From positions 1-50,896 of IMG/VR virus record IMGVR_UViG_3300012665_000657: 50,896 bases of DNA. One strand, written 5' to 3'. Position 1 is the first letter of the stretch; every line of letters begins with the position of its first letter. The notes beneath the pieces are model-generated. The model saw nothing but the letters and a program-made list of their open reading frames with translations. It did no database searches and had not been told where the DNA came from. The stretch comes from a virus. Its lineage: Duplodnaviria; Caudoviricetes. Positions 2,022-31,415 of the stretch are shown here, in pieces. A program made the translations under genes and the position numbers.

Positions 2022-2591
2022 TTACTTTCTAAAAAAGAGTTTTGTTGCAATAGTATACCTAGGATATGTTGCAACTCTAGATGGTGCTATTGCAGAATGG
2101 GGTATTCGAGAGTCAAAAAATATCACTCTCCCGGGTTTGACGGTAACTCCAGATTCTATTTCTGTGCCGTCATCGTCGTAAAATAATGTTTCACCGTGCC
2201 ATGCTGGATCCCATGAATGATTAGCATATTGCAAAATAGTGTAATGATGTTCGTCTGTACTTGCCGAGTCTGTATGTACTTTGTCAACAGTTTCTAACGT
2301 AGCAAAATTAACATGCATTCGTTTAATTTCAAATGGAGAATGTTTTAGTTCGTCGATATTTTTTCTATATTGAGTAAGCAATAGTGAACAAAAACGATCG
2401 TGTTGGTCAAGTTCATAACTCCATTTTAAATCTGTAGGTATATCTTCACCATGGGCTACATCAATGTTATTTCTACGATAGTCGCCTTCAATGGCCAAGG
2501 TATGAACATCTTGACGTTGTTGTACTGTAAACATACCATCATATATGATAAGTTTTTTATCATTAATTTTAATTAGTTTTTTTGAAATCAT
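2022..2591 (-). CDS. 2OG-Fe(II) oxygenase (prolyl-hydroxylase-like)
   Basis: HTD...GETLF...KPGRVIFFD..IPH...R facial-triad pattern. Confidence 0.85.
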   Translation of the reverse strand: MISKKLIKINDKKLIIYDGMFTVQQRQDVHTLAIEGDYRRNNIDVAHGEDIPTDLKWSYELDQHDRFCSLLLTQYRKNIDELKHSPFEIKRMHVNFATLETVDKVHTDSASTDEHHYTILQYANHSWDPAWHGETLFYDDDGTEIESGVTVKPGRVIFFDSRIPHSAIAPSRVATYPRYTIATKLFFRK

Positions 2592-3148
2592 AGATCTCTC
2601 CTATCTATCCTAATGTCAAAATTAACAGCACATCTAGGCCCAGTAGTAGGAATACCGCCACCGTGTTCTATTCTGCCATCAAAAATAATTAATCTTCCTC
2701 TTTTTGGCGAAACACGTTTTACAATCTCGCCGTTATGAAAAAATACAGTATCTCCGTCGCTGTCGTTCACATAATACAATACTACATAGTGATCAAATGG
2801 TAAATCAGTATGCGGAGCATAATGTTTTAGATTTGTATTGTACGGTACTAATACAAATATCCTTGCCAATATAATATCTTTTAGTGTACTATTAATTTCA
2901 GCACAGGCTATTTGCGGTATTAGCCCAAAGTTATCCATATGTGTGCTTAATGCTGTACTTGACTTTAAAACATGCACAAACGACAATGGCAGTTTGCCAT
3001 TTTCTTCGCCTGTACTTTCGTATCGACATTTTAAATCAACAATAGCATGCATTGATTTTTCTTGATCCGTTCCGCGTCCCATGACTGCTAGCTCGTAGTA
3101 GTCAACGAGATGCGGAGGGATTATATCATCAAATACTTCGATAAACAT
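2588..3148 (-). CDS. 2OG-Fe(II) oxygenase
   Basis: PHTD...YYVNDSDGDTVFF...PKRGRLIIFDG..EH...R. Confidence 0.85.
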   Translation of the reverse strand: MFIEVFDDIIPPHLVDYYELAVMGRGTDQEKSMHAIVDLKCRYESTGEENGKLPLSFVHVLKSSTALSTHMDNFGLIPQIACAEINSTLKDIILARIFVLVPYNTNLKHYAPHTDLPFDHYVVLYYVNDSDGDTVFFHNGEIVKRVSPKRGRLIIFDGRIEHGGGIPTTGPRCAVNFDIRIDRRDL

Positions 3149-3753
3149 TATTGTTTCGGTTCTTCAATAGGCTCATCAAAGCATAAACTTTCCATAGTCT
3201 TGTAATGTTCGTAGGCTTTTTTAAGTGCTTCAAACTTTTCAAGTTTCTTTGGATCGGGTACTAGAATAGCAAGGCGCTGTTCCATTTTCTTCATAAACTC
3301 TTTTAGGCTCTGACCATCAATTTTAAGATCAGTGCCAGCTGCCATCTCAATACCATTGGTATTGATTTGAACAGTACTTGGGCTATTAGAAAAACTATAA
3401 CTGTTTCCAGCGCCACTAATAGTATAATTAGTACCGGTATTCCAATTTACTGAATTGTTAGCAGACAGCGATCCGATTTGGCTTGTAGTTAAGGCACCAA
3501 TTTGAGCGGTAGTAACCCCACTAACTGTTGTACCCTGACCGCCATATCCATAGTAGCCAGAACTAGTTGGTAACGTGATAGTACTGATACCACTTAGATC
3601 AATGCTATCTATAGGACTGGAGATAGTAATAGTATCGTTGCCTGCATAATAGCTTGAAGACAGATCCGGATCAACACTAGCACTTCCGAGATCTATAACA
3701 AACTCATCCTCGGAAAGAGGGCCAAGCTCATCAAGTTGATCACGGATTGACAT
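3148..3753 (-). CDS. Hypothetical protein with Ser/Thr/Gly-rich low-complexity middle
   Basis: Start reassigned to MSIRDQ (ATG 3753, next to upstream stop); ends EALKKAYEHYK. Confidence 0.7.
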   Translation of the reverse strand: MSIRDQLDELGPLSEDEFVIDLGSASVDPDLSSSYYAGNDTITISSPIDSIDLSGISTITLPTSSGYYGYGGQGTTVSGVTTAQIGALTTSQIGSLSANNSVNWNTGTNYTISGAGNSYSFSNSPSTVQINTNGIEMAAGTDLKIDGQSLKEFMKKMEQRLAILVPDPKKLEKFEALKKAYEHYKTMESLCFDEPIEEPKQ

Positions 3754-3754
3754 A

Positions 3755-3946
3755 TTAGGCCTTAGCTTCTTTACGAGCGTTCTTTTCTGCTGTAATTTCA
3801 TTACGTCGAGCTTTAACGCCTTTAGCAACATCTTGCAGCGCCTTACGAGCACGAGTACCAGCTGCACCATTGCCTGCTGTGAATTTTGCGTCTTCAGCTA
3901 AGAATGCTTCGAAGTCTGTTTTTAATTGTTCTACGGTATTTGACAT
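3755..3946 (-). CDS. Histone H1-like (Hc1-type) small DNA-binding protein
   Basis: 63 aa, KFTAGNGAAGTRARKAL...ARR motif; AAGGA RBS; TAAGTA at 3973-3978. Confidence 0.75.
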   Translation of the reverse strand: MSNTVEQLKTDFEAFLAEDAKFTAGNGAAGTRARKALQDVAKGVKARRNEITAEKNARKEAKA

Positions 3947-3989
3947 TTTTGTTTCCTTGATAAAAGTTAAAATACTTATTCTTATTACA

Positions 3990-4102
3990 TGGTGTGGCTG
4001 GTAGGTTTCGAACCTACAAAGGCTGCGAACTACGTTCATCGCCCCATCCCCATTCTATACTATGAGTATAGCGGGAGGTCTGCCTATTCCACTCACAGCC
4101 AC
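3990..4102 (-). ncRNA. Oversized tRNA-like RNA (113 nt), CAU loop, extended anticodon and variable arms
   Basis: Acceptor GTGGCTG/CAGCCAC-A-CCA; T-arm GTAGG-TTCGAAA-CCTAC; D-loop GGAATAGGCAGAC; CTATA-CTCATAG-TATAG. Confidence 0.75.
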
Positions 4103-4165: not shown

Positions 4166-5143
4166 ATGCACGAAGACTTTCAAAAGATACCATTCCAGAA
4201 TATTGTTCGTTTTGGACAACGAACAATGTTGAGTCGGCCTTTGTTTTCCACAAGTTGGATATTAGGCCGGTTCTGCAATTATTCCTGTTCATACTGTTGG
4301 CCATATGCACGTAGTGACAAATTGGATCATCAATCATTAGATGTGTACAAGCATACAGTAGATCAAATTAAAAGTCAAGCCCGAGCAAATGGATTTAATC
4401 AATTCCATTGGAGCTTCAGCGGCGGCGAACCCACTACTTATAAACAGTTGCCTGACTTAGTAAAACATTTAGACGAACTAGAAAGTAGCTACCAAAGCAT
4501 CCATATGACTACTAACCTAAGTCCGGGGAGTAAGTGGTGGAACACTTGGTGCCGTAATACTGAGATGCTACAACGTCGTAGCATTACAGCTAGTTTTCAC
4601 GATGAGTTTGCCAAGGAGCAAGAATTTGGCGACAAGTGTTTACAGTTAATGTACGAACTTGTTCATGTTACAGTTAATCAAGTAATGGTTCCAGAAAAGT
4701 TCTATGATTTGTACGATCGAATGGAAAGACTACACAAGCGTGGTATTAATGTAACACTTAAACCCATGAGCGATCCAACAGCTAGTGGAATTGTCGAGGG
4801 GTATACTGAAGATATGATACACAAGATGCAAACAGGATTTCCTCAACGTGCCTTTGGCGAAGAGGTTTATCAAATTGCTCTATATGATTCGGCTAATAAA
4901 GAATACCTATTTGACCAAGCAGAGCGATTTAATGCGTTTGGATTTAATAAATTTAAAGACTGGACTTGCAATTCTGGATATCAAAGTGTTATAATAAGAG
5001 GTAACGAAGTGAAACGCAGTTACAGTTGTCACGACCAGCCGTTAGGAACATTGGACCATTTTGATTTATTTAAGGAACCCCAACGCTGTATTACACCTAG
5101 TTGTGTTAGTAGTGCAGACAGCAAAATACCTAAATGCAAATAA
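4166..5143 (+). CDS. Radical SAM protein with C-terminal twitch-like Cys
   Basis: CNYSCSYC, SGGEP, C-terminal CNSG...C...CITPSC. Confidence 0.9.
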   Translation: MHEDFQKIPFQNIVRFGQRTMLSRPLFSTSWILGRFCNYSCSYCWPYARSDKLDHQSLDVYKHTVDQIKSQARANGFNQFHWSFSGGEPTTYKQLPDLVKHLDELESSYQSIHMTTNLSPGSKWWNTWCRNTEMLQRRSITASFHDEFAKEQEFGDKCLQLMYELVHVTVNQVMVPEKFYDLYDRMERLHKRGINVTLKPMSDPTASGIVEGYTEDMIHKMQTGFPQRAFGEEVYQIALYDSANKEYLFDQAERFNAFGFNKFKDWTCNSGYQSVIIRGNEVKRSYSCHDQPLGTLDHFDLFKEPQRCITPSCVSSADSKIPKCK

Positions 5144-5724
5144 ACACTGAACATTTACATCATTGGATGCAGGCTATCCGACAAAGTCCAGATCCTATGC
5201 GGACTATGGATGCTTTTTGGTCTGGACAACTTAAAAGCAAAGAATGGCTGATTACTAACTTACGTAAACACGTGAAGAAATTTGTTAGTATCGATATTCA
5301 CGGCGGCTGGGTAGGAGTATTAGCTAGTATGTTGTTCCAGAGTGATGTACCAGTTCTTAATATTCGTAGTGTTGATATTGATCCTACGTGCGAACCTATT
5401 GCTATCAATATGAATAAGATTGAAGAGATGATTGGTAAGTTCCGTGCTGTTACTGCAGATATGTGCGAACTTCGTAGTGATGCTGATGTTATCATTAACA
5501 CTAGTTGTGAACACATAACGCAAGACCAATACGACTTATGGTTAAGTGGAATGCCTGCTAATAGTTTATTAGTGTTACAAAGTAATAATTATGATATACC
5601 CGAGCACGTTCGCACTGCGGCCTCGTTAGAAGAATTTAAAACTCAATGCGGTATCAATGTTATATGGGCTGGAGAGTTAGAACTTCCGCTGTATACTAGA
5701 TGGATGATTATTGGTAATCAATAA
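5134..5724 (+). CDS. Class I SAM-dependent methyltransferase-like protein
   Basis: DIHGGWVG motif I, SVDID, ADM, INTSCEH. Confidence 0.7.
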   Translation: MQINTEHLHHWMQAIRQSPDPMRTMDAFWSGQLKSKEWLITNLRKHVKKFVSIDIHGGWVGVLASMLFQSDVPVLNIRSVDIDPTCEPIAINMNKIEEMIGKFRAVTADMCELRSDADVIINTSCEHITQDQYDLWLSGMPANSLLVLQSNNYDIPEHVRTAASLEEFKTQCGINVIWAGELELPLYTRWMIIGNQ

Positions 5725-6806
5725 TGTTTAAATTTAATCACTTAAAATCTATACATATAGAGCTAACTAGTAATTGTCAAGCACGGTGCCCAATGTGTGC
5801 TAGAAACAATCACGGCGGACTTCCTAATCCATTATTAAAAATACAACAATGGTCTATGGAAGATTTTAAGTCTATCATCACGCAAGAAATACTAGATACT
5901 ATTGATAAGATTTACTTCTGCGGTAACTTTGGCGATCCTATGTTGCACGACAATTTAATAGAGATATGTCAACACATCAAAGACAACAAGCCGTCATTGA
6001 CTGTAAGTGTACATACCAACGGCGGTGCAAGAAAACCTGAGTGGTGGCAATCATTAGCAAAAGCATTGCCTAAAAATCATTGTGTGCATTTTGCACTAGA
6101 CGGACTTGAAGACACACATCATTTGTATCGTATAGGAACCAAATACGAAACAGTTATTAAAAATGCATCGGCATTTATTGCAGCAGGCGGCAGAGCAGAA
6201 TGGACATTTATTAAATTTAAACATAATGAACACCAAGCAGAAGAATGCCGTCAACGTGCTACTGAGCTAGGATTTGAAAAGTTTGTGCTAAAAAATAGTT
6301 CTAGATTTTTAGTAGAGCCCAAGTACGATGTATTGGATACTCAGGGAAAGTTAACTCACTTGCTCGAACCGCCTAGCGAAACAACTGTAAAATTTCTTCC
6401 AAAAGAAGTTATCAATTCATATAAGGCTGTAGTTGCAGAAGCAGAAATTTCTTGCTTTGTTCAAGAAATAAAAGAAATTTATATTGACGCTTATAAAACT
6501 GTGATGCCCTGTTGCTGGATAAGCTCTATTCCTTATACGCATTATGATCCTAACCATATCAACAGCGATGTTAGCGGAGCAATTAAATCACAATACGATA
6601 AACTTATTAGTGACTTTGGCGGTGCTGATAAATTAGATGCTTCTAAAGGAATCAAGAATATTATTGATTCAGATGAATGGCAATCAATGTGGGATAAAAA
6701 ATGGAACGACGAGAAATTAATTACCTGTGCAAGGGTGTGTGGAAAATTTAAATCTATTGAGATTTCTCAACCCAATGATCAATTTATAGATACTTCGATC
6801 CTCTGA
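5724..6806 (+). CDS. Radical SAM protein (SPASM/twitch)
   Basis: CQARCPMC, CGNFGDP, TNGG, C-terminal C...PCC...CARVC. Confidence 0.9.
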   Translation: MFKFNHLKSIHIELTSNCQARCPMCARNNHGGLPNPLLKIQQWSMEDFKSIITQEILDTIDKIYFCGNFGDPMLHDNLIEICQHIKDNKPSLTVSVHTNGGARKPEWWQSLAKALPKNHCVHFALDGLEDTHHLYRIGTKYETVIKNASAFIAAGGRAEWTFIKFKHNEHQAEECRQRATELGFEKFVLKNSSRFLVEPKYDVLDTQGKLTHLLEPPSETTVKFLPKEVINSYKAVVAEAEISCFVQEIKEIYIDAYKTVMPCCWISSIPYTHYDPNHINSDVSGAIKSQYDKLISDFGGADKLDASKGIKNIIDSDEWQSMWDKKWNDEKLITCARVCGKFKSIEISQPNDQFIDTSIL

Positions 6807-7719
6807 TATCTGTTCCGCACGTACATTCTAACAAGGTACATTTTACAGGAACGTTCAGTTCGTTAGGATCAATGTCTAAGTAATGATCAAACCGTTTTAT
6901 TCCACAGTTGGCCCATATTGCTGAGCCATCGTCAAAAATACAAATAGACTCACGCCCAACACTACATTGCCAGCCAAAAAAACTATTTTGCTTCTTTCTT
7001 ATTAATTCAAATGCATCTAGTTCTTTTAAACTAAGGTCTTCGTATGTACCGGTCGAACTTGTGTCATCTAGCCACATATGCGTTTTTCTTAATTCTGCTT
7101 CTCGTTCGGCAGTAAACAACCATTTAGATTCTGATGTTGATAAAAATGTTAGTTGTTCGTCTGTATATTGAGCTTCGAATTTTGCACCTGCCCAATTGTC
7201 CATAACTCTAATAGGAGTTACTTTCAAGTCCTTCATTTGTTTTAATTGATCAAGCCAGTCGATGGCAACATCCCAATAGTCGGGATCCATCATTACATAT
7301 ACTACTAAAAAAGAATGTTGTGATAATAATTTTAATTTTTTTAAATCTAAAGTATGCTGACTAGGATGCAGGGTGATGCACCAATTATCAACTAAGTGTT
7401 TTACACTATCGTAGAATCGGTAAGTACGGACACTATTGCTATCAACAGATACATTAAAATTTACATCTCTAGCAATCTGTATAACATCTTTAAATTGCGG
7501 ATGTGTTGTACACTCTCCTCCGGTGATTTGTATTGCACCGTCCCTATCTTTAAATTTTAATAAAAATGTTTTTAATTCATCAAGATTTAAATTGCGGTGC
7601 TGACCGGCGTTCAGGGTGTCTGGACAATATCTACAGGAATACGTACAGCTTCTAGTCATAATAAAGTTAATGCGTAACGCATTAGAATTCTTTATTTGTA
7701 TCTTAATCAGTTTTGGCAT
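6784..7719 (-). CDS. Radical SAM protein (twitch)
   Basis: CTYSCRYC, TGGE, C-terminal CSVG...C...CTLLECTC. Confidence 0.9.
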   Translation of the reverse strand: MPKLIKIQIKNSNALRINFIMTRSCTYSCRYCPDTLNAGQHRNLNLDELKTFLLKFKDRDGAIQITGGECTTHPQFKDVIQIARDVNFNVSVDSNSVRTYRFYDSVKHLVDNWCITLHPSQHTLDLKKLKLLSQHSFLVVYVMMDPDYWDVAIDWLDQLKQMKDLKVTPIRVMDNWAGAKFEAQYTDEQLTFLSTSESKWLFTAEREAELRKTHMWLDDTSSTGTYEDLSLKELDAFELIRKKQNSFFGWQCSVGRESICIFDDGSAIWANCGIKRFDHYLDIDPNELNVPVKCTLLECTCGTDIRGSKYL

Positions 7720-8758
7720 TTAATAATCCTTCTATTAAACTGCTTGAATTGTTACACTTACCGCAGATAGCCGAACATATTGCATTTCGTCCTTGATTCA
7801 TTGTTAGATTCCAAGATGCTTTTATTCTATTAAATGTAGGAGATTTTATAATATCCTCAATGGTATTTTTATATAAACTGATCTCATCTTTATCTAATTG
7901 ATCTTTAGCGTCCTTTACCCACGTATATTCAGCAGGCAACAAATTATCGTCTACTAATAGTATACTTGCAGTATGGCAACAAGGAAATACTAATCCGTCC
8001 GCACTAATATACACATTACTTTGTTCTATCGCTTGACAATTTATTTTAACAGAATTTAAATATTTTTCAGTTTGGGGCATTTGAGAAAAATTTAACGGAG
8101 TCCCTTGATGGATGAATCGAGGGTCAGTAGCCATTTCAACTTGATTTATCTCATGTTGTGGTTGTCCTAATAATGTTCTGTGGGATATTTTTATTTTAAA
8201 ATTCTTAAAACCCAATTGCTTAGACAGTGCTTCTGCTTCTTCTACTTGATGTTGGTTATGTTTAAATGGTATAAACTGCCAAGTACTAACAGAGCCCGAA
8301 CGAATAAATTCTTTAATGTTACAAATAGCTTGTTCCCACTTTACATCTACTCTATAAATGTGGTTTGTATCTTCTAATCCGTCTAAGGCAAAAATAACAT
8401 TTCCGTTCTGTCCTATTATTTTTCCTAGCTCGTACCACCAACTAGGTTTTTGTACGCTTCCATTAGTATATACTTCTACAAAGATTTTAGGATTGTGACT
8501 TCTAAACCATTTGATAATGTCCAGTAGATGTTTGTTCATTGCAGGCTCTCCGATATTTCCGCTGAATGATACCATATCTGCATGTGTAACTACATCCTTA
8601 GAAAAATAAATTTCAAAGAAATCTTTTGACAAATTTACTTGTTTGAAAAAACTATAATCCCCTCCACGACTTTCTCGCATACAATGAGGGCACTTTGCAT
8701 TACAATAAGATGTGGGTTCTACATCTATTACTTTTATTTTGTTTTTATAAAAATTCAT
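7703..8758 (-). CDS. Radical SAM protein (SPASM/twitch), paralogue of 5724-6806
   Basis: CNAKCPHC, SGNIGEP, FALDGLEDT, PCC...CSAIC. Confidence 0.9.
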   Translation of the reverse strand: MNFYKNKIKVIDVEPTSYCNAKCPHCMRESRGGDYSFFKQVNLSKDFFEIYFSKDVVTHADMVSFSGNIGEPAMNKHLLDIIKWFRSHNPKIFVEVYTNGSVQKPSWWYELGKIIGQNGNVIFALDGLEDTNHIYRVDVKWEQAICNIKEFIRSGSVSTWQFIPFKHNQHQVEEAEALSKQLGFKNFKIKISHRTLLGQPQHEINQVEMATDPRFIHQGTPLNFSQMPQTEKYLNSVKINCQAIEQSNVYISADGLVFPCCHTASILLVDDNLLPAEYTWVKDAKDQLDKDEISLYKNTIEDIIKSPTFNRIKASWNLTMNQGRNAICSAICGKCNNSSSLIEGLLNAKTD

Positions 8759-9423
8759 TGCGGTGTTAACGAAACGTTAAATCCTTTATCTTCTAATTCT
8801 TTAATATAAGGTGCTAGTACTGTTGTATCGCAATTTATAAGAACTTCTCGCTCGCTCACTTTTTCAAATCCAGTTATTATTTTATTCTTAATTGCACGAT
8901 TAAAAAACGACATAAGGGTTATATATATTTCTTGTTTCCAATCATAGTCGCCGCCTTCTACTTTTAATAAGTATCCGGGCAATATAAATTTTGGTAATGC
9001 TATACGAACATTAAGATGTATTCTAGGCCTTGCTCCAAAGTTCCCCGCAATATGCGTTTTACTAGTATCCATTAACCAAAGTTCACCGTCGGCTGGCATA
9101 TGATACATTTTCTCAGAATCAAAATCTATTAAGAATGAATGTTTATTTGTAGTAATGGCAAGATGTATTCTATCATCGGGATCTGAGTGTGCTGTATAAC
9201 TTTCGCCGCAGTCTAACTTTAGTAATCGTGCTTCTCCGGGATTGTCCAACAGTTCCAACACATTTCCTAATGGAGTTCCGATAAATTCTGCTTTAGTCTT
9301 GTACGGGCCATTAAGTATATTCCCATCGGTGTGATTTATAGCTAAACTTTTGTCGAAGTCTAACGCATTAACTTGCCTCACAACTGGATCAATATCTATT
9401 TTTATGCCCATCTTTTCTATCAT
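8755..9423 (-). CDS. Asp/Asn beta-hydroxylase-like 2OG-Fe(II) oxygenase with C-terminal extension
   Basis: ARLLKL..GESYTAHSD..RIH...THIAGNFG..PRIHL. Confidence 0.7.
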   Translation of the reverse strand: MIEKMGIKIDIDPVVRQVNALDFDKSLAINHTDGNILNGPYKTKAEFIGTPLGNVLELLDNPGEARLLKLDCGESYTAHSDPDDRIHLAITTNKHSFLIDFDSEKMYHMPADGELWLMDTSKTHIAGNFGARPRIHLNVRIALPKFILPGYLLKVEGGDYDWKQEIYITLMSFFNRAIKNKIITGFEKVSEREVLINCDTTVLAPYIKELEDKGFNVSLTPQ

Positions 9424-9428
9424 AAATA

Positions 9429-9459
9429 TATTTATCGCTATTAACTGCGCACATAAATA
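9429..9459. promoter_or_regulatory. Divergent late promoter cores
   Basis: TAAATA on minus strand (9429-9434) and plus strand (9454-9459), each 5 nt from a start codon. Confidence 0.6.
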
Positions 9460-9464
9460 TTCCT

Positions 9465-18922: not shown

Positions 18923-19431
18923 TGATAAATTGGAATACTGTTGTTGATGCATTAATTTCGCAACCAGGCGAAGTTAGAACCATCGGCGAAAATTTCTATG
19001 AAAATGTTGATGGCAGATTTAATGAGATTATACATCTATGGAACAATGCTGGATATACTGCTCAAAAGGTTGAATGGATAAATTACTATCCCGAAAAACA
19101 TTTTAGTAATGATATAGTTGAAAAATTTGCAAAAGCGCATAATCTAACTACTGCTCGTGCTTGGATTAGTAAAGTCCGTCCGGGAAAGTCTGCACCATGG
19201 CATCAAGACATAGACGATAATTTAGAAAAATATGAAACTCTAGGAAAATTAAAAAGATACACATGTCAAATTAGCAAGCCGGCACACGGGCAGGTGTTTC
19301 TAATAGAAAAAGAATCGTATTACATGCTGCTGCAGGGAACGACAGTTCTATGGAATGACCATATGGCTTGGCATGGCGCATCAAATTGTGGATTTACGGA
19401 TCATTACCTTTTCCATTTTATAGGATATTAA
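18922..19431 (+). CDS. Asp/Asn beta-hydroxylase-like 2OG-Fe(II) oxygenase
   Basis: WISKVRPG.SAPWHQD...WHGASNCG. Confidence 0.75.
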   Translation: MINWNTVVDALISQPGEVRTIGENFYENVDGRFNEIIHLWNNAGYTAQKVEWINYYPEKHFSNDIVEKFAKAHNLTTARAWISKVRPGKSAPWHQDIDDNLEKYETLGKLKRYTCQISKPAHGQVFLIEKESYYMLLQGTTVLWNDHMAWHGASNCGFTDHYLFHFIGY

Positions 19432-22582: not shown

Positions 22583-24152
22583 AATTATAATTGTAGGCGG
22601 CGGCACAGCCGGTTGGATGACGGCGGCATGGTTGATTAAAAAAAATAAAAATGTTTCAATAACAGTAATTGAAAGTCCCGAAATTCCAAAGATCGGAGTA
22701 GGAGAAAGTGTAACACCGCATGTAGCTAATTTCTTTATGGGACTAGATGTTCCCGAGGAACACTGGATGTACCACACTGGCGCTATCTATAAATTAGCTA
22801 ATAAGTTTGTTAATTGGAAAACAAACACCAGTGACGCTGAATATTTTAGCTTTAACTACACAAGTGACTCTCGACTATTTTACAAAGAAAATAGTGTACC
22901 ATTAACGATGACTGATTGGCAAATTAAAAATCTAAGATCATCGGATGTACTATTAGACTTATGTAATCAAGGTAAGATTAATAAGTTTGGTGATCATTTC
23001 CATACGCAGTATCATTACATGGAACAGAATCGTGCACCGTTTATTAATAACGAATATTTACTTAACCCATTGCTTAGTTGGAGCCACCATATAAATGCTG
23101 AGTTGACTGCAGAATACATTCGAGATCATATCGCCGTTCCGTCGGGTGTTACTCATATTAAGGCCAAAGTAGTAGATGCTAGTACGCAAGGTGAAAACAT
23201 TACATCAGTTAGTTTAGAAGACGGCAGAGTAATTGACGGTGATGTATTTGTAGATTGTACAGGGTTTAGAAGATTACTAGCAACTAAGTTAGGATGGAAA
23301 ATTAAAGAGTACAATGATGCCGCAGTCGATCGAGCATGGGTTTGTCAAATCGATTATAATGATCGAGAGAACGAAATGGTTAATTATAGTCAAACTATTG
23401 CACAACCCCATGGATGGATGTTTAGAATTAGTCTATATCATCGAATGGGCACTGGATATATTTTTAGTTCTAATCATACTACTGAAGAAAAAGCCAGGGA
23501 ACACTTTCTTGATCAAATAGGTGACATGGATCGTAGGTTTGATCCTAAGTTAATTAAATGGACTCCTAGTAGATTAGAACATGCTGCTAAAGGAAATACA
23601 GTAGCAGTGGGTTTGAGTTTTGGTTTTGTTGAGCCTATGGAGGCCAATGCACTTTACACTATTATTACTACTATTGGTAAGTTAAGTGAAGCACTAGATA
23701 ATAACTTAGACTTTACTTTACTAAACAAGAATGTGTGTTATAGTATGGACGATATTGCCGACTTCGCAATGGTACACTACAGTCTAAGTCAACGTACTGG
23801 TACTGATTTTTGGAGTGATATGAGAAGTCGTAATGTTAGTAATAGTCATATCGATCTACTGCATAGTAAGTATACTAGTCCTATGCACTCGATGTCTAGT
23901 TGTATCGACGGCACTACCTTATTTCCTGATTACATGTGGGCTCACTTAGCACAAGCATGGGGAGTTGATACAAGTTCGTGGAACATCAAAGCCGACAAAG
24001 TAACACAGGATCTTGCTAGACTCTATTATGAATACCAGTATAGTAAACACAAGTTGGCTAGTAGTATGTGTGATAACAATTATGTGTGGTTAAAAAAGAA
24101 TCGATTTAAAGACTTAAACCCTCAAGAATGGGAACGCTTAATAAGAAGTTAG
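22575..24152 (+). CDS. Flavin-dependent halogenase (tryptophan halogenase family)
   Basis: GGGTAG, IGVGES, AIYK, FVDCTG, GWMFRI, FVEPMEA. Confidence 0.9.
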   Translation: MTKIIIVGGGTAGWMTAAWLIKKNKNVSITVIESPEIPKIGVGESVTPHVANFFMGLDVPEEHWMYHTGAIYKLANKFVNWKTNTSDAEYFSFNYTSDSRLFYKENSVPLTMTDWQIKNLRSSDVLLDLCNQGKINKFGDHFHTQYHYMEQNRAPFINNEYLLNPLLSWSHHINAELTAEYIRDHIAVPSGVTHIKAKVVDASTQGENITSVSLEDGRVIDGDVFVDCTGFRRLLATKLGWKIKEYNDAAVDRAWVCQIDYNDRENEMVNYSQTIAQPHGWMFRISLYHRMGTGYIFSSNHTTEEKAREHFLDQIGDMDRRFDPKLIKWTPSRLEHAAKGNTVAVGLSFGFVEPMEANALYTIITTIGKLSEALDNNLDFTLLNKNVCYSMDDIADFAMVHYSLSQRTGTDFWSDMRSRNVSNSHIDLLHSKYTSPMHSMSSCIDGTTLFPDYMWAHLAQAWGVDTSSWNIKADKVTQDLARLYYEYQYSKHKLASSMCDNNYVWLKKNRFKDLNPQEWERLIRS

Positions 24153-24938
24153 GTGATCAATTCCAAGTTTCTTGCGGAATGCTTCTGTAAACTTTCCATC
24201 AATACGCAGGCTATAACTCTGTTCCATAATTTTTTCACCACCGTGCCAGTCTACATCATTCCACCAAGCGGCCCTGGTATTAAGATATACTTTGTTTTTA
24301 TTCTCTGGATCCCACAAGTAAAAGGCTTTCTTAGTGTTGGGACGAACGTGTATAAATTCATTTCGATGCGGCTTAACAATATTAACACCGTTTTTAGCAT
24401 CTAAGTCTCTGTGTTCAAAAGGAATACCATCTGCTTCACAGTGAAAGAATATAACACGGCCAATATCCTCAAATACAGTACCTACTAGACTCTCAACCCA
24501 CTTAACCACATTAGGAAAGTACGCAGCCTCATCTGTGAGTTTGCGAGGTGCAGTGCGATCATCCCAAGATCCTTCTTCCCAAAGGAAATAGTATATGTAA
24601 GGATCGTAAGCACCCATTGCCATTTTTAGATAACGAGTGAATTTATTACGTTGTTTGTAGTTATTAAAATCTTTAAAAAGATCTATACCGCCTTGATAGA
24701 TAGGATCGTCTTTAGGTAACGCCATAAACTCATCCATGGCTTGATATATAGGCTTCCAAGATAATTTATAGCTCATGTTATCAAAGGTAAATCCAGGCTT
24801 CATCCATGTACCTTCTTTAGCAAACTCACGTGCTTCTGCGAACCCACGTAGAATCTCTGGTTGCATTTTTTCAAATGCTCTCATGTCTAAGTGTTGTTCC
24901 ATATCGAAATATGGTTGATTGTTAATTCCCTGTATCAT
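24138..24938 (-). CDS. 2OG-Fe(II)/cupin oxygenase-like protein
   Basis: GRVIFF..PFEHRD...DWHGG..SLRIDG. Confidence 0.6.
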   Translation of the reverse strand: MIQGINNQPYFDMEQHLDMRAFEKMQPEILRGFAEAREFAKEGTWMKPGFTFDNMSYKLSWKPIYQAMDEFMALPKDDPIYQGGIDLFKDFNNYKQRNKFTRYLKMAMGAYDPYIYYFLWEEGSWDDRTAPRKLTDEAAYFPNVVKWVESLVGTVFEDIGRVIFFHCEADGIPFEHRDLDAKNGVNIVKPHRNEFIHVRPNTKKAFYLWDPENKNKVYLNTRAAWWNDVDWHGGEKIMEQSYSLRIDGKFTEAFRKKLGIDHLTSY

Positions 24939-24943
24939 GATTA

Positions 24944-24974
24944 TATTTAGTATGTGGTATTGCCTTCATAAATA
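24944..24974. promoter_or_regulatory. Divergent late promoter cores
   Basis: TAAATA on minus strand 24944-24949 and plus strand 24969-24974. Confidence 0.6.
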
Positions 24975-24995
24975 CTTCGTGAATAAGGACTATGC

Positions 24996-25496
24996 ATGTC
25001 AGCTTTGAGATTTATTGGAAATTACGCAGATTGGATTAATCCAGAATGGATTGATTATTTTAAAAATAATCAAGGACAAGCTAGACCTCCTTCTTGCCCG
25101 GTAGATGAATACCATACTCTTGTGTATAAAAAAGCAAGCGAATCTGGGTATGATATGAATGCTGTACATTTTTGGTATTTTAAACATACTGATGTTCCCT
25201 TTGATATTAAACCGCCTTGGTTGACTAGTGACAATTATTATTGGTGGATGGTAAAAATGATGCCAGCTCAATACATGAATATGCATAAAGATCCCGATGT
25301 AGAAAAGAATGTTATTCGATATTGGATGCCTTGGACTGACTACGAAGAAGGCCATGTTTTTATAATCAATAATGAACTAGTGACTAACTACAAAGCCGGC
25401 GATGTATTCGCATACACCGAACAAGATGCATATCACGGATCTTCTAATATTGGATATACAACTAGATATGTATTTCAGGTTTCGGAGTTTTTTTAA
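24996..25496 (+). CDS. Asp/Asn beta-hydroxylase-like 2OG-Fe(II) oxygenase
   Basis: KMMPAQYMNMHKD...GHVF...YHGSSNIG..R. Confidence 0.7.
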   Translation: MSALRFIGNYADWINPEWIDYFKNNQGQARPPSCPVDEYHTLVYKKASESGYDMNAVHFWYFKHTDVPFDIKPPWLTSDNYYWWMVKMMPAQYMNMHKDPDVEKNVIRYWMPWTDYEEGHVFIINNELVTNYKAGDVFAYTEQDAYHGSSNIGYTTRYVFQVSEFF

Positions 25497-26185
25497 TGGC
25501 AGATTACGAATATTATTATAATAATGTGCCCGGCCATGGCCCGTGTAGAAATAACTTAATATATACAAGTCTTATATCTAGAGATAAAAAGACATTCGTA
25601 CAGTGGTATCATAATGATACCGAATATCACAAGGGACAGAACCAAGTAGTTGATCCTTCTCAAATGGAAGCTAAGTGGTTACGTGAAATTAACTATCTTA
25701 CACAGATGCGCAACAGATACCCGCATCTAGTTCCTACTATAAAAAATATTGATCTAGCATCACGAAAATTATATTTAGAAATAGACGGACCGGACTTCTG
25801 GGAACAAGCGGGCTGTTTAACTGAAAACTATGATAGTGTTTTACCTGATTGGCAAGATCAAATGATCGATATTATTAAAGCACATAAAAGTTTAGGGTTA
25901 TACAAGTACAGTATGCATCCTAGCAGTTATTTTATAGTGGATGGAAAACTAAAAAGTATTAACTATTTTTTCTGTTATAAAAATACTGAGACTAATTTTA
26001 GTATCAAAGATGTTGAAAGTCATATCTATTCAACTCGCCAATCTGAAATGCGAAAACATATAGAAAGTTTAGGAATAGAATGGGACACACCCCAATCGTT
26101 TGAATTGTTGGAACAACTATGCTGGACTAGTTTTAGAACTAACTATCCTGCAGACTTTATAGAGAGGGTAAAATGTTTAGAATAG
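25496..26185 (+). CDS. Protein-kinase-fold-like protein (probable pseudokinase)
   Basis: REINYL..LVPTI, YKYSMHPSSYF..KSINYF. Confidence 0.55.
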   Translation: MADYEYYYNNVPGHGPCRNNLIYTSLISRDKKTFVQWYHNDTEYHKGQNQVVDPSQMEAKWLREINYLTQMRNRYPHLVPTIKNIDLASRKLYLEIDGPDFWEQAGCLTENYDSVLPDWQDQMIDIIKAHKSLGLYKYSMHPSSYFIVDGKLKSINYFFCYKNTETNFSIKDVESHIYSTRQSEMRKHIESLGIEWDTPQSFELLEQLCWTSFRTNYPADFIERVKCLE

Positions 26186-26739
26186 TGCCCTGGTCTTCTG
26201 ATTTAGATCTGACACAGTTTTATCTAGAAGCTTCTAAACGAGGATTTGAAAATAACGCTACAGAAAAAATGCTAGTTGACAGTTTTAATAATGAACGTGA
26301 AAAGCAAGTATGGATTTTATATTCTAACAACGATCCGATAGGTAGTGTAGCTGCACACAGTTTTGATGAAGTTATGGGTATTAATTCATACCGTATTGCT
26401 GCACGTACATGTGTGTTTACGGACAAGATAAAAAATAGTTACGGAACGGCCTTGAGGACAAAAAATGTTATTATCGAAAATCAAAATCCAACTGCTCAAT
26501 TTTTAATACCCGCTTGTATAGAGTGGGCTCCTAAAGGCAGTAGACTTTATATTACAAGCAATCAAAGTAATGTAGGAACACAGCGTAGGGTACATAACAT
26601 ATTTGGTCCTCTGATGGAACGGCAAGGAATGATGAAACGAATTAAAGAGATTGAATACCGGGGACATTTACAAACTATTTGGGAATTATTTCCAGATAAA
26701 TTTTATGAAATATTGAACAAGTATCCGAGGTGGGAATAA
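26173..26739 (+). CDS. Hypothetical protein, possible GNAT-fold
   Basis: WILY...IGSVAAH..YRIAARTC strand pattern; coupled ORF. Confidence 0.5.
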   Translation: MFRIVPWSSDLDLTQFYLEASKRGFENNATEKMLVDSFNNEREKQVWILYSNNDPIGSVAAHSFDEVMGINSYRIAARTCVFTDKIKNSYGTALRTKNVIIENQNPTAQFLIPACIEWAPKGSRLYITSNQSNVGTQRRVHNIFGPLMERQGMMKRIKEIEYRGHLQTIWELFPDKFYEILNKYPRWE

Positions 26740-27335
26740 TGAAAAAATATAAAGTATTTGATTATAAGATAGCAAGAACACATTGTGATGATGAATTAAT
26801 ATACAAGAATCCTAAAATAGTCTCGGGATTAGATAAGTTATTTTCTGATCCTAACCTGTGTCCATGTTTGGATGATCAAAATGGAGAAGGAATTAGTACT
26901 TTTAGACTTAATGATTATTTTTTGTTTAATGACGTAGACGGTATTGATCCTTTCAAACAGTGGTTCGAGGAACAGGCATTAGCAGTATGTGAATATTTCA
27001 ATCAACCAGATGCAACAGGAATTACTTATTTTAGAGCATGGACAAATAAAATATTCAAAGGATGTTCTGGAAATGTACATGATCACGATCCGGATAGTCA
27101 TGCAATGGCATTATTTTATCCCTTGGCTCCGCACGGTAGTGCAGATTTTGGATTAGTAAAAGACGGCTGGCCTCACGCAAAAAATAATGAAATACTTCCT
27201 GAAAATATTGCTTGGCAGGAAGTTCGAGAAGGAGACTTACTGTTCCACGAAACTACTGCATGGCATACTGTCTCAGAACATACCGCTGAAGATCCTAGAA
27301 TAGTTTTTGTAATAGAGTTTAGTTATACAAAATAA
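26739..27335 (+). CDS. Putative 2OG-Fe(II) oxygenase (HxH type)
   Basis: AWTN..G..VHDH...EGDLLF..WHTV..RIV. Confidence 0.8.
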   Translation: MKKYKVFDYKIARTHCDDELIYKNPKIVSGLDKLFSDPNLCPCLDDQNGEGISTFRLNDYFLFNDVDGIDPFKQWFEEQALAVCEYFNQPDATGITYFRAWTNKIFKGCSGNVHDHDPDSHAMALFYPLAPHGSADFGLVKDGWPHAKNNEILPENIAWQEVREGDLLFHETTAWHTVSEHTAEDPRIVFVIEFSYTK

Positions 27336-27336
27336 A

Positions 27337-28488
27337 ATGACAATTATTCAAAATATTAACCAGTTCAAACCTCATTTGATAGAAAAAATTATCGATGAGG
27401 TAAAAAGAGTTTCAGGTAAGCTATTGTTGCCAACTGTTAGCTTATGTGAGCATTGTCATTATCATGTTCCTGCATATAGATACGAGTTAGATAATAAAAT
27501 CTATATTTGCAAGCATTGTGCAATACACGGATTTAGTCACAATCAGATTGAAAGTGATGCTGAGTTTTACTACAAATTAGAATACACTACTGGAACTATG
27601 TGGAACTTTGATAATTATATCCTTACCGAAGTTACTGATCGATGCAATCTCGAATGTCCGCATTGTTATCACTTACCCGATAATAAAATAAAAGATGAAT
27701 CCCTTACTAGTATCCTTGAAAGAGTTAAGCAATATCATCCTAGTATATATCATGTTATTTTAGCAGGTGCAGAATCTAGCTTAAGAAAAGACATCGATCA
27801 ACTAGTGACTGAAATTTATAAATTAGGACGCTTGCCGCAAATACTAACTAATGGTGTTAGATTTGCAGATGAGAATTTTGTAAAAGGATTAGCGGCAACT
27901 AATGCAGGAATGACGGTGACATTTGGGCTCAATCACCCTTCGTATCTAAACAACGAAACTATACGAAACAAACAAATTAGAGGAATATTAAATGTAAGAG
28001 ATCAGCTTGACGCTGTATCATATGTAGGATATACTATGGTTTCTCTAGACGAACTTGATTATATTTTAACAGAAATTACAACAACTGATTGGTGCGATCA
28101 TTCTAGGATTAGATCCGGTAGTGAGATAGGGCGGAATGCAACCGAAGGGCCTATTTTTGTAAGCGATGTTTTTAAAGCAGCAAAACAATGGGCAGAAACT
28201 AATAACCGATCGTTTGAAGTTCTGCCAGCCGACAACAATATATATCATGTGGTGGTTAAAATTGGCAGTAAGACTATTCGACTTATACACTGGTGTGATG
28301 AAACTAATATCGATATGGAAGAACTGCGGACCGGACCTTGGTGCGATTTTGTGCCAGACGGCATTACTAATTTCTTACATCAGGTCATACGAAGAGATGT
28401 CTGGAAAAATAATAAAATAATTTTACCTGATTCGCCACCTTTACGATATCAGCTGGAACATTTTAAAAATAATGATCCGATATTTTAG
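27337..28488 (+). CDS. Radical SAM protein with Tes/MJ0619-like N-terminal metal ribbon
   Basis: SLCEHC...IYICKHCAIHG, EVTDRCNLECPHC, TNG. Confidence 0.85.
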   Translation: MTIIQNINQFKPHLIEKIIDEVKRVSGKLLLPTVSLCEHCHYHVPAYRYELDNKIYICKHCAIHGFSHNQIESDAEFYYKLEYTTGTMWNFDNYILTEVTDRCNLECPHCYHLPDNKIKDESLTSILERVKQYHPSIYHVILAGAESSLRKDIDQLVTEIYKLGRLPQILTNGVRFADENFVKGLAATNAGMTVTFGLNHPSYLNNETIRNKQIRGILNVRDQLDAVSYVGYTMVSLDELDYILTEITTTDWCDHSRIRSGSEIGRNATEGPIFVSDVFKAAKQWAETNNRSFEVLPADNNIYHVVVKIGSKTIRLIHWCDETNIDMEELRTGPWCDFVPDGITNFLHQVIRRDVWKNNKIILPDSPPLRYQLEHFKNNDPIF

Positions 28489-28523: not shown

Positions 28524-30221
28524 TTATGCAGCCGCTGCAATTTCTCGCCACGTTCCGCCTAAGTAAACTACCATAGTTTGTTTTCCATTAGACATTGGAT
28601 TCCATGTAGTACCATCAGCAATTGCAATTATACCGTTAACAGGTGACGCAGGCGCCGCGGTTAATATCGCAAGTTTAGCAAATCCGTTAACATCTAATGT
28701 TGCTTCGGCCGGAGATACTCCTTTGTTAATTCCAACAAAGCCTCTAGAGTCAATTACAACACCTTTGAAGTTAGCAGGATTACCATCAGTAAATGTACTT
28801 AATGAAATTGTTCCAGGAACAGTAGTCCCGTTGATAGTGCCACCCGGATCAACAAAGTGATTTATCGCAGTAGTTAGCTGATATGTAGTGCCATTGTGGC
28901 CAACAACGTTAGTCCCATAGATAATATCGCCTAACTGTAAGATTGCCGGAGCAGAAAGTGTTCCTCTAGATACAAAGTTATTTTCTCCAGTACCGGTTGA
29001 GCCGTTGGAGATTGCATACGATTCTGTATGATTTCCTGACTCTGGAACATATCGACGAACAGTAGTTGTGCGTATAGGATTTGCATTAACAATATCTAGA
29101 TAAGCTCTATTGGTAGTAATTGATTCAGTTTCAATTGCATCAAAGTTTCCGTCGGGTGCATTTACACTACCGCCGACAGTAATAACCTGTGTAGCAGCAT
29201 CAATAATAACTGTACTGTCGTCACCAATCATGCTACCAATAAACTGATTTGCTCTTACTGTTCCGCCAGGAACCGCTAAATCGGCATACATAGTAATGCC
29301 AACATCAGGTGTAACTGTCAATGCAGTTACATTGCCGCCGAGCGTAGTTCTTGTAAAGATAGTGAGCGGATTGTTTAGATCAGCATAGATACTAGTAAAG
29401 TTACCGTTACCAGTTACATCACCCTGTAGATTTCCAGTTACATTACCTTGTAGATTTCCGGTTACATCACCCTGTAGATTTCCAGTTACATTACCTTGTA
29501 GATTTCCAGTTACATCACCGATAAATCCACCCGATGCTGTTATAATTTCAGTATCAGAATTGATCATTAATGAACTGTCGTCAGCAGCAATGTTTATCTT
29601 ATAAGTGCTTCCTTCAATAACCCCATCACCTGTACCTGTACCTGTGCCTGTGCCAATAACAACACCGCCAATTGTACTTCCTGCAGGGAGTTCTACAACA
29701 CCGCCAGACGATGTAATAGTTGCGTCGCCTAAATGTAAGCTAGTGCCGCTTAAATACAGATCTCTAAATTTCAACCCAGATGAGCCAATATCATATGCTG
29801 AATCTGAATCTGGTATAATATTACCCTTAACTGTTCCGTTTAAGTTAATGCTAGCACGGATAGCGTCAACTAACGGTTCTCCGCCTAAACTAGAATCATC
29901 TGGAAATACTGAACCTTCAAACGCATCGGCTCTAATAGTTCCTGCATAATTTGAAAGTACAATATCCACTGTAGCGTTAATATATGTACCGTCGTAAGCA
30001 AAGGATATCCCTCCACTGTGGGTTCCCTCAGTGAACATTGTTCCAGTAATGTTTTTTATACCAGATTCGGTGAGATTTGCTACGGCAGTTCCGCCGAGGG
30101 TGTCACCATCACCGATATACAGGGTTCCTGTATTGGTTACATAAAGCAGCTCCCCGCTTGCTAAGGGCTCCACCATTGCTGTACGTTGCGTTTCAGTTCC
30201 GCGTCTAACCTGCAAAGGCAT
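28524..30221 (-). CDS. Tail fibre/virion appendage protein
   Basis: N-terminal LQVRRGT...GELLYVT..LYIGDG head motif; G/N/T-rich repeats; TAAATA at 30252-30257. Confidence 0.75.
   Translation of the reverse strand: MPLQVRRGTETQRTAMVEPLASGELLYVTNTGTLYIGDGDTLGGTAVANLTESGIKNITGTMFTEGTHSGGISFAYDGTYINATVDIVLSNYAGTIRADAFEGSVFPDDSSLGGEPLVDAIRASINLNGTVKGNIIPDSDSAYDIGSSGLKFRDLYLSGTSLHLGDATITSSGGVVELPAGSTIGGVVIGTGTGTGTGDGVIEGSTYKINIAADDSSLMINSDTEIITASGGFIGDVTGNLQGNVTGNLQGDVTGNLQGNVTGNLQGDVTGNGNFTSIYADLNNPLTIFTRTTLGGNVTALTVTPDVGITMYADLAVPGGTVRANQFIGSMIGDDSTVIIDAATQVITVGGSVNAPDGNFDAIETESITTNRAYLDIVNANPIRTTTVRRYVPESGNHTESYAISNGSTGTGENNFVSRGTLSAPAILQLGDIIYGTNVVGHNGTTYQLTTAINHFVDPGGTINGTTVPGTISLSTFTDGNPANFKGVVIDSRGFVGINKGVSPAEATLDVNGFAKLAILTAAPASPVNGIIAIADGTTWNPMSNGKQTMVVYLGGTWREIAAAA
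29409..29519 (-). repeat. Tandem 24-nt repeat encoding G(D/N)VTGNLQ
   Basis: About 4.5 units alternating GDVT/GNVT (48-nt period). Confidence 0.9.
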
Positions 30222-30280
30222 AAAATATTCTCCTACGATCTTTTTATCGTGTATTTATGCCAACTGCAGATAACTGTATT

Positions 30281-30856
30281 TTATTGATATTCGATATCAG
30301 CAGCTAATATATATCTATATTTTTCGCTTTGTACTATGCCCGGGCGGTGCCATTGATTAGACGGATAAATTAACCATGTAAAATCGCTGGGTTTTACAAA
30401 GAATTTTCCGGGCTGATCAATGCCGTTTGGAGCCATTTCTGTACCGCAATAGTCGCGATCTTTTACATCTTCGGGTATGTGCAGATAGAAGATTCCGCTC
30501 ATCATTTTGCTGTTAGGGTTTTTCGGATGCCAATGATTGTGCCACAGCGTTTCTCGATCTTCGGCACCCTCAAGATTTGTCATAAAACTCCAGGCCATCA
30601 TGTTGCTGACTTTTACTTCACGGCCTAAGTACATAAACAGAGAAAATAAAAAGCTCATACGATACTTTAACCATACAGGCTCGGGCCTAGCAAAAATGTT
30701 TTCTTTGGTTTGAAATTTGGGAGAATTTTCGAAATAATTTCCCGATGATACAATATCTGTTACTATTGATATTGCTTGTTGATTGTCGGCTTGCGTTATT
30801 GTAGAACTGAAATCAAATTTTCTAAAGGTGTCATCGCTATCTATAACTGTCATCAT
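30281..30856 (-). CDS. Putative 2OG-Fe(II) oxygenase (HxH type)
   Basis: WHNH..MSGIFYL...IYPS.QWH..R. Confidence 0.75.
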   Translation of the reverse strand: MMTVIDSDDTFRKFDFSSTITQADNQQAISIVTDIVSSGNYFENSPKFQTKENIFARPEPVWLKYRMSFLFSLFMYLGREVKVSNMMAWSFMTNLEGAEDRETLWHNHWHPKNPNSKMMSGIFYLHIPEDVKDRDYCGTEMAPNGIDQPGKFFVKPSDFTWLIYPSNQWHRPGIVQSEKYRYILAADIEYQ

Positions 30857-30857
30857 A

Positions 30858-31415
30858 TTATATAAAATTAAATGCTATTGATATTCTAGACTCGTCAGCT
30901 TGACTCATTTCTACCTGATGCCTAACATAACTAGGAAAAGTTACCATTAGCCCTTTTCTAGGCTCTTGAATTATTCTTCCTATATTATTCTCGTTCGGAG
31001 AATATTGATAGATGTGTTTATGAAAATCATCAGGTCTCTCAATTACTAATGCACCGGAATTTAATGGTGCAGTAATATATAACACTGAAGAAATTAAACA
31101 GCCGGGATGAGTATGACTGGTATTGTAGCTGTATTTGTTGTTTACATTGAACCAGTAATTTCCTAATTTAGGTGTAGTTGTAATTCCTAAATCATCATAC
31201 ACCTGCTGTATTTCTTTTAATACTTCCTTCATTAACTCATTCATAAAAAGTTTACTTTGCGTAAACGGTTTACTTTGCCATCCATATCTATTACTGCGTT
31301 GCTCAGTAAGTGGATTATGATCCTTAAAGTCTAAAATAGACTGTTCTAGTTGATCAAGGGGAGTAGTTAAATCTGAAAAATAAAGGGAAGTAAAAAACGG
31401 TGTAGACTTTTGCAT
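30858..31415 (-). CDS. Putative 2OG-Fe(II) oxygenase (HxH type)
   Basis: WFNVN..SHTHP..SSVLY...FPSYVRHQV..RISIAFN. Confidence 0.85.
   Translation of the reverse strand: MQKSTPFFTSLYFSDLTTPLDQLEQSILDFKDHNPLTEQRSNRYGWQSKPFTQSKLFMNELMKEVLKEIQQVYDDLGITTTPKLGNYWFNVNNKYSYNTSHTHPGCLISSVLYITAPLNSGALVIERPDDFHKHIYQYSPNENNIGRIIQEPRKGLMVTFPSYVRHQVEMSQADESRISIAFNFI

Follow-up and report, generated by a model that had tools for sequence, protein, structure and literature searches.

Why would a phage carry ten radical S-adenosylmethionine (SAM) enzymes and seven oxygenases in a single, almost gapless run of genes? The question is raised by the virus record IMGVR_UViG_3300012665_000657, hereafter the window, a 51-kb stretch (50,896 nucleotides) that also encodes ThyX, an RNA polymerase omega-like protein, ClpP and 28 tRNAs. 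The island that holds these enzymes spans positions 4166–28488, with 27 open reading frames (ORFs) back to back over 24.3 kb. It is a conserved tailoring-enzyme block of a T4-like jumbo phage; the 51-kb window contains no capsid gene, and the phage placement therefore rests on relatives. Our tentative reading of its function, which we rate as somewhat short of probable, is that its enzymes make or modify an unusual sugar late and in the cytoplasm, for glycosyltransferases of the phage to attach, probably to the fibres of the virion.

An earlier note had drawn an island of ~29 kb at 2022–31415, containing ten radical SAM enzymes, eleven oxygenases, a halogenase and other tailoring enzymes. That interval is 98% coding, with 33 ORFs and 658 free bases. 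The block is real, but the true unit is the 24.3-kb run, and the interval also spans a separate leftward unit (2022–4102), a tail-fibre-like gene (28524–30221) and two outer oxygenases (30281–31415). The strands are corrected as well: within the island, the ORFs at 6784, 7703, 8755 and 14814 lie on the minus strand. The counts of both main enzyme classes stand. CxxxCxxC is found in all ten radical SAM ORFs, compared with a mean of 0.08 ORFs and a maximum of 2 in 2,000 shuffles, and PF04055 matches all ten, above its cut-off in nine (7703 scores 26.5 against 29.5). The ten are as follows.

4166–5143 (+), rS1, radical SAM enzyme with C-terminal Cys; unit head with TAAATA at −16; homologues in Bdellovibrionales
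5724–6806 (+), rS2, radical SAM enzyme; paralogue of 7703
6784–7719 (−), rS3, radical SAM enzyme; paralogue of 13185 and 4166
7703–8758 (−), rS4, radical SAM enzyme with a C-terminal SPASM/twitch match
11012–12271 (+), TW5, N-terminal-twitch radical SAM enzyme; NF033640, 335 bits against a cut-off of 170
13185–14084 (+), rS6, radical SAM enzyme; core, 63 of 66 loci
14814–16202 (−), TW7, N-terminal-twitch radical SAM enzyme; NF033640, 391 bits; no TAAATA within 60 nt
16913–18922 (+), radical SAM enzyme with a B12-binding-like N-terminus, nearest to KedN5-type C-methyltransferases
19431–20921 (+), second putative B12-type radical SAM enzyme
27337–28488 (+), rS10, radical SAM enzyme with an N-terminal HMPTM zinc ribbon; Tes/TrsS-like architecture, below cut-offs

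Only TW5 and TW7 pass the cut-off of NF033640, a family with N-terminal twitch cysteines; the other eight fall below it. The two B12-type ORFs match PF02310 at 29 and 19 bits (cut-off 32), and the KedN5 model scores 131 bits on 16913 (cut-off 700). Identities as viperin, MoaA, NirJ or Tes were tried and rejected, with best scores of 34–68 bits against NCBIfam equivalog cut-offs of 180–515.

A pyridoxal phosphate (PLP) enzyme of fold type I stands among these genes. Its predicted model is closest to CobD (Foldseek E 9e-10; Z 18.0, root mean square deviation (rmsd) 4.2, 270 aligned), and the PLP-binding Asp, D159, and the Schiff-base Lys, K187, are invariant. The family has 521 protein clusters (E up to 0.001), and among the best 150 of them three long members combine PLP with an N-twitch radical SAM enzyme and one combines it with a PhyH oxygenase. 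Given such gene fusions, the two enzymes, twitch radical SAM and PLP, probably work one after the other on a single substrate, and the fusion is reminiscent of a radical-oxidation/amination pair. The gene immediately downstream of PLP encodes a QueC-like or twitch enzyme in 61 of 70 distinct loci. A QueC identity for the PP-loop protein at 10309 was rejected (PF06508, 17.3 bits against a cut-off of 22); SGGxDS and four Cys are retained. Sequence searches against solved structures returned nothing significant for the PLP, QueC-like or GT2-like (see below) families. The kinase-like proteins, Kin1 and Kin2, have the kinase fold, on a confident model (pLDDT 93) that matches IRAK3 (Z 12.2, rmsd 3.4, 189 aligned) and Rio1 (Z 12.1), but in the family consensus, aligned to TTK, the positions of the catalytic-loop Asp (HxD) and Asn are Ser. 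Because the catalytic Asp is missing, ordinary phosphorylation by these proteins is doubtful, and they may carry out a non-kinase reaction. Among the labels of the earlier note, PLP and kinase-like are thus upheld as folds on predicted models; QueC-like and short-chain dehydrogenase/reductase (SDR) find weak family matches only, and methyltransferase, GNAT and SGNH stay motif or reader labels with zero family matches. No island enzyme has a strongly hydrophobic or transmembrane segment (maximum 1.68 over 19 residues).

9465–10322 (+), PLP fold-type-I enzyme; invariant D159 and K187; fused elsewhere to N-twitch radical SAM
10309–11025 (+), QueC-like PP-loop ATPase; four invariant C-terminal Cys; below the QueC cut-off
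16255–16923 (+), Kin1, protein-kinase-like, without the catalytic-loop Asp; unit head
25496–26185 (+), Kin2, protein-kinase-like fold, without the catalytic-loop Asp
5134–5724 (+), putative SAM-dependent methyltransferase, by motif, no family match; 52 of 66 loci
12268–13188 (+), unknown protein with conserved His/Glu; accessory, 10 of 66 loci
14081–14854 (+), SGNH-like protein, by motif, no family match
22022–22582 (+), short SDR/epimerase-like Rossmann protein; weak matches
26173–26739 (+), GNAT-like protein, as labelled in the earlier note, no family match

The HxD/HxH…H metal triad is present in all eleven oxygenases of the interval, and is at least 90% conserved in the seven that have three or more homologues. 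Pfam names six of them (2022, 2588, 8755, 26730, 30281 and 30858). The ORFs at 20914 and 24138 resemble Asp/Asn β-hydroxylase clusters, as Atlas leads only, and 18919, 21465 and 24996 are paralogues of 20914. The halogenase label is borne out by PF04820 (300 bits), a GxGxxG motif and matches to RebH (E 3e-58) and VirX1 (E 1e-55). Its catalytic Lys is assigned by motif. At position 281 the sequence reads WMFRIS in place of WxWxIP, the tryptophan halogenase motif.

8755–9423 (−), Ox3, Asp/Asn β-hydroxylase-family oxygenase; H79, D81, H124; unit head
18919–19431 (+), Ox4, oxygenase; H95, D97, H152
20914–21468 (+), Ox5, oxygenase; H107, D109, H164; AspH-like lead
21465–22025 (+), Ox6, oxygenase; 53% identity to Ox5
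24138–24938 (−), Ox7, oxygenase; H176, D178, H232; median identity of relatives 79%; unit head
24996–25496 (+), Ox8, oxygenase; H97, D99, H147; unit head
26730–27335 (+), Ox9, 2-oxoglutarate (2OG)-Fe(II) oxygenase; phrog_81
22575–24152 (+), flavin-dependent halogenase family, RebH/VirX1-like; accessory, 2 of 66 loci; missing from the syntenic relative G002

Is this block peculiar to one phage? Its core recurs in 142 mutually non-independent viral loci; a search with TW5 gave 66 loci and one with PLP 250, 80 of them being kept. The loci were picked by these very genes and cut 10 kb to each side, with loose paralogue assignment, and at identity thresholds of 95% and 80% the 128 TW5 copies collapse to 74 and 26 groups, respectively. 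Within the 66 loci, best matches were counted for TW5 in 66, rS2 in 65, rS6 in 63, TW7 in 61, Ox3 in 58, the methyltransferase in 52, the QueC-like protein in 46, PLP in 44, rS1 in 41, the halogenase in 2, and Ox1 and Ox9 in none. Even close relatives differ freely in the order of the genes and in which accessory ones they carry. The closest syntenic relative, G002, has ThyX, the island, the fibre gene and tRNAs, with the halogenase missing from its syntenic place. A larger relative, G001 (221 kb, 61% complete), carries the same island in nearly the same order, adjoined by IscU/IscA, together with a T4-like portal and a capsid protein 65–68% identical to those of PA5oct, Paride and similar jumbo phages of 285–470 kb (Rak2-like group). 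It also holds a second cluster at 9721–22579, beside tail genes, with four twitch radical SAM genes and carbamoyltransferase, SGNH-like and GT2-like genes.

Among bacteria, the best matches other than fragments are Bdellovibrionales, whose chromosomes hold rS1, rS2, TW5, TW7 and PLP together, in clusters among housekeeping genes (fusA, dnaG and biotin genes) and with up to seven twitch enzymes in tandem. In one such locus (G018:C1:791541-803016, L232), rS1 leads a tandem run of six or seven N-twitch genes, with genes for UDP-glucose dehydrogenase, GT2 and an amidotransferase beside it. Across 50,697 phage records, Ox7 and PLP have zero matches, and the only cultured phages with distant twitch enzymes are one Ralstonia and two Vibrio phages, where the other core genes are not close by. 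Vibrio phage K566 (L112:14890-21626), which is cultured and has four distant twitch radical SAM genes, is a possible experimental model.

When would the island be expressed? The motif TAAATA lies within 60 nt of seven of the eight unit heads in the window. Divergent units are separated by spacers of 41–57 bp that often carry it on both strands:

9424–9464 (no strand), 41-bp divergent spacer with TAAATA on both strands; likewise 24939–24995, and on one strand only in 16203–16254

Over the 142 loci, the motif precedes 246 of 323 divergent heads as opposed to 33 of 898 internal starts. In G001, against a background of 0.04, it is found at 10 of 10 island heads and 12 of 18 structural heads, and at 1 of 12 in small-gene units, 0 of 5 in the glycosyltransferase/ribonucleotide reductase block and 10 of 25 elsewhere. 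ATAAATA is the predicted late promoter motif of Rak2-like phages (PMC5259590; here and below, statements on papers given by PMC number hold for the available portions of their text). Late expression of the island is thus a prediction from promoter sequence. A sigma-70 scan flagged nothing.

What, then, is being tailored? As the earlier note held, the interval lacks any non-ribosomal peptide or polyketide synthase, glycosyltransferase or precursor, by family scan and small-ORF search. Its reading of the island as resembling a pathway for peptides made on ribosomes and modified after translation (RiPPs) is weak and finds no support. No precursor fits the 658 free bases, although a distant one is possible, and over the 142 loci there is no conserved small ORF inside the island, the only recurrent ones being a histone-like small protein, an IF-1-like ORF and other flank genes. 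By Pfam, none of the 33 interval ORFs is a RiPP recognition element (RRE)/PqqD, leader protease or exporter, although a divergent RRE could escape. The idea of a hypermodification system survives in its other part: the genes co-occur and are co-regulated, and they map to no known cofactor pathway, with the MoaA, NirJ, viperin and QueC models far below cut-off. A virion or surface target for such a system is plausible. Nor is the missing scaffold a property of the island; it stems from the 51-kb fragment, and larger relatives carry glycosyltransferases and nucleotide-sugar enzymes. G001 (119 ORFs scanned) encodes GT2, GT9, GT25, HldE and epimerases. For G010 (353 kb, 99% complete), the scan covered 177 of 477 ORFs; those passed over were shorter than 130 aa, had a homology label already or were skipped. 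It revealed seven or more glycosyltransferase genes (GT1, GT2, GT9, GT17, two GT34 and a DXD-type), RmlB/C/D-like enzymes, DegT, a sulfotransferase and two carbamoyltransferases, some directly after fibre genes. G010 carries SufBD as well, and its region 162895–191559 holds genes for FolE, QueD and possibly QueE; neither QueC nor the TGT family has a match in this phage.

A putative glycosyltransferase is also linked to the island itself in relatives: in 10 of 44 distinct loci, the gene directly upstream of rS1 and co-oriented with it belongs to a GT2-like family that has DxD motifs. PF00535 matches 9 of 120 listed homologues, and 4 bear glycosyltransferase names. The family occurs in one of the 50,697 phage records, and that record is among only four with a twitch relative; it is further present in two of five additional partial phages and three of five bacterial genomes with twitch arrays. 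Of the five Bdellovibrionales clusters examined, three contain or adjoin glycosyltransferase genes. Among 49 scanned proteins (46 accessory families embedded in related islands and three others), AspH-type oxygenases are the commonest named match, with sulfotransferases, GT8, a DegT aminotransferase, a nucleoside-diphosphate-sugar epimerase, a PIG-L deacetylase and SGNH-like proteins mostly in few loci; frequent embedded families include ones of about 440 and 400 aa.

The sugar-tailoring reading is built on the enzyme families and folds, their conservation, the promoter motif, the radical SAM–PLP fusions and the GT2-like linkage in relatives, all of which are observed; from these we infer a substrate, reaction order and acceptor. 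The twitch radical SAM enzymes would act first on a sugar or nucleotide-sugar, by oxidation, dehydration or epimerisation, and give a product for the PLP enzyme to aminate or deaminate. The B12 radical SAM enzymes and the methyltransferase could then methylate it and the oxygenases hydroxylate it, while the PP-loop ATPase and the GNAT-like and SGNH-like proteins might add or remove acyl or amide groups, and accessory genes (halogenase, sulfo- and carbamoyltransferases) would vary the decoration between phages. Finally, glycosyltransferases encoded elsewhere would load the sugar onto late-made virion proteins.

A number of observations pull the other way. The PLP model is nearest to the amino-acid enzymes CobD, MalY, OvoB and RohP, not to DegT-type sugar aminotransferases; TW5 finds its best solved-structure match in a peptide enzyme, SkfB (E 1e-4); and six of the eleven oxygenases look AspH-like, which points to a family whose best-known substrates are peptides. 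Assignment to GT2 is weak, and no solved structure matches. No glycosyltransferase of this family is found in the window or in its closest partial relatives, G002 and G006, it is missing from three of the five additional partial phages and two of the five bacterial genomes with twitch arrays, and the two twitch-bearing Vibrio records have no match to it. Only 5 of 25 distinct loci have a fibre gene after the GNAT end. TAAATA is found ahead of ThyX here and of a DHFR/ThyA unit in G001 as well, which shows that virion genes are not its only context, and its counts are raised by the AT-richness of intergenic sequence. Moreover, jumbo phages frequently have glycosyltransferases without such an island.

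Some of these points lead to direct side-chain modification of large virion proteins, RiPP-like chemistry on structural proteins as in the earlier note's proposal, which we judge unlikely. AspH-like oxygenases, kinase folds, the halogenase and the SkfB similarity would suit it, as would the late motif with the adjoining fibre gene, bacterial β-hydroxylases tied to tail-collar and collagen-like proteins (PMC2938197) and six Gly-X-Y proteins in G010. Yet those Gly-X-Y proteins contain only 1–3% Pro and have no counterpart in the window, G001, G002 or G006; no RRE (Pfam on the interval) or precursor (142 loci) is found, the same core sits in bacterial chromosomes, and the PLP–radical SAM fusion would better fit a diffusible amine or carbonyl. 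Modified sugars could alternatively be destined for host lipopolysaccharide, lipid A or capsule, blocking superinfection or grazing, as proposed for related phage clusters (PMC7029224, PMC7824862). The heptose-pathway HldE, GT9 and GT25 genes of G001 and a Kdo-hydroxylase-like gene in one Bdellovibrionales cluster would then find a place, but the late motif common to island and structural genes, the enzymes' lack of strongly hydrophobic segments and the absence of any flippase or polymerase found near the bacterial clusters make this less likely still.

An enzyme mix resembling secondary-metabolite clusters, a PLP model that matches amino-acid enzymes, and accessory ATP-grasp-like, AMP-binding and class III aminotransferase genes in relatives are what a diffusible small molecule would call for, whether an aminocyclitol, nucleoside or amino-acid-derived antibiotic, a signal or a defence inhibitor. 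We consider this improbable: neither a scaffold synthase nor an exporter is present, the genes and their order are freely reshuffled in close relatives, and up to seven tandem paralogues in Bdellovibrionales would better fit surface diversification. Hypermodification of phage DNA or tRNA is very improbable, even though the island borders 28 tRNAs and ThyX, the PP-loop enzyme has weak TilS/TtuA similarity, G010 encodes FolE, QueD and a possible QueE, and PLP and radical SAM pairs act in thymidine hypermodification. An ordinary ThyX or ThyA is present and G010 lacks QueC; the tRNA-guanine transglycosylase (TGT) family, PF01702, was found in none of five records, including the 99%-complete G010, by a search that recovered 14 of 14 controls and had no DpdA-specific model. 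PF18723 and Tet/JBP likewise gave none in the five records, a blank that carries no information, since their controls also failed to match.

Around the island, the following neighbouring genes lie within the interval of the earlier note.

2022–3148 (−), two 2OG-Fe(II) oxygenases (phrog_274); separate leftward unit, outside the core
28524–30221 (−), tail-fibre-like protein (Mtd_N); TAAATA at −36; candidate acceptor
30281–31415 (−), two outer 2OG-Fe(II) oxygenases, behind tRNA-Gly; peripheral

The leftward unit also includes a 113-nt tRNA-like RNA at 3990–4102 (−), with an acceptor stem, CCA and an extended anticodon arm (fold z −2.5), which neither ARAGORN nor Rfam calls. A small basic protein at 3755–3946 (−), which we take to be histone-H1-like, recurs in 22 of the 142 loci; at 3148–3753 (−) lies a protein rich in Ser, Thr and Gly that carries a weak ALTTAQ repeat. 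Beyond the island, 28 tRNA genes covering all 20 amino acids occupy 31432–39783 (−); among them lie a malonyl-CoA decarboxylase C-terminal-like protein (37802–38242, −) and a second SGNH-looking protein (36915–37703, −). The window further encodes an RNA polymerase omega-like protein (32086–32340, −), a Bax-inhibitor (YccA-like; 639–1337, −), ClpP (40721–41308, −), a dual-specificity phosphatase (34052–34513, −) and, at its end, a truncated fibrinogen-C/COLFI-domain protein (50176–50896, +), probably a virion fibre.

Returning to the tailoring of a virion sugar, a broader proposal is that freshwater jumbo phages and predatory Bdellovibrionales share an undescribed radical pathway, with N-twitch radical SAM/PLP pairs and pseudokinase-fold enzymes, which would give the particle or surface of the predator itself a coat that is hypervariable and chemically new and that serves to recognise hosts or to camouflage. 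We regard this as speculative. If the product does decorate virions, abundant jumbo phages would diversify their surface chemically, besides fibre sequence, using a toolkit common to predatory bacteria. The ten radical SAM enzymes fall into at least five sequence groups and are retained in many lake phages; they constitute a large reserve of unexplored chemistry.

How does the island compare with known systems? Its twitch enzymes at 11012 and 14814 belong with NF033640 (N_Twi_rSAM), which also forms arrays in Bdellovibrionales genomes; NF033640 is a single family without a known reaction, whereas here its members sit within a co-regulated block of 27 genes, and the twitch–PLP fusions and the linked GT2-like gene give this function-less family a testable partner and substrate class. 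BtrN, a twitch enzyme of the butirosin pathway, is similar in that it is a radical SAM enzyme, has a single auxiliary cluster domain and is coupled with a PLP enzyme; here, however, the twitch is N-terminal, the PLP subtype differs and BtrN is not among the solved-structure matches. Glycosylation of mycobacteriophage virions is said to be driven by glycosyltransferases, without a radical SAM array. It offers a precedent for phage-encoded glycans on the particle (Freeman 2023, cited in PMC12691614). Substrates of related enzymes are diverse: of the known twitch enzymes, BtrN oxidises an aminocyclitol and MoaA acts on GTP, and many SPASM enzymes act on peptides (PMC9012708).

Among phages, the T4-like marine genome TARA_ERS488813_N000010 has 12 radical SAM genes and an Fe–S carrier (PMC5332604), and shares with the present phages many radical SAM genes alongside Fe–S assembly genes (IscU/IscA in G001, SufBD in G010). 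The available text of that paper interprets its genes as Fe–S metabolism, with no pathway, subfamily, promoter or partner analysis. Oxygenase–halogenase clusters have been described in cyanophages (PMC2938197, PMC7824862), as has a PLP/radical SAM trio in one cyanophage (PMC12801897), and host-recognition islands of pelagimyophages contain glycosyltransferases and radical SAM cassettes (PMC7029224). As with our island and its relatives, the cyanophage and pelagimyophage clusters combine tandem 2OG oxygenases, halogenase, and carbamoyl- and glycosyltransferases near fibre genes (PMC2938197, PMC7824862, PMC7029224). The main text of PMC7824862 has 0 matches for 'radical SAM'. In a full-text literature search, with supplements and subscription papers outside its scope, no paper characterises the island, such clusters being only described. 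Unlike the cyanophage and pelagimyophage clusters, the island is dominated by radical SAM enzymes and has a fixed PLP/QueC-like/twitch core in common with Bdellovibrionales. It is a variant of the phage tailoring island, not a RiPP cluster, and is real, widespread and biochemically unexplored.

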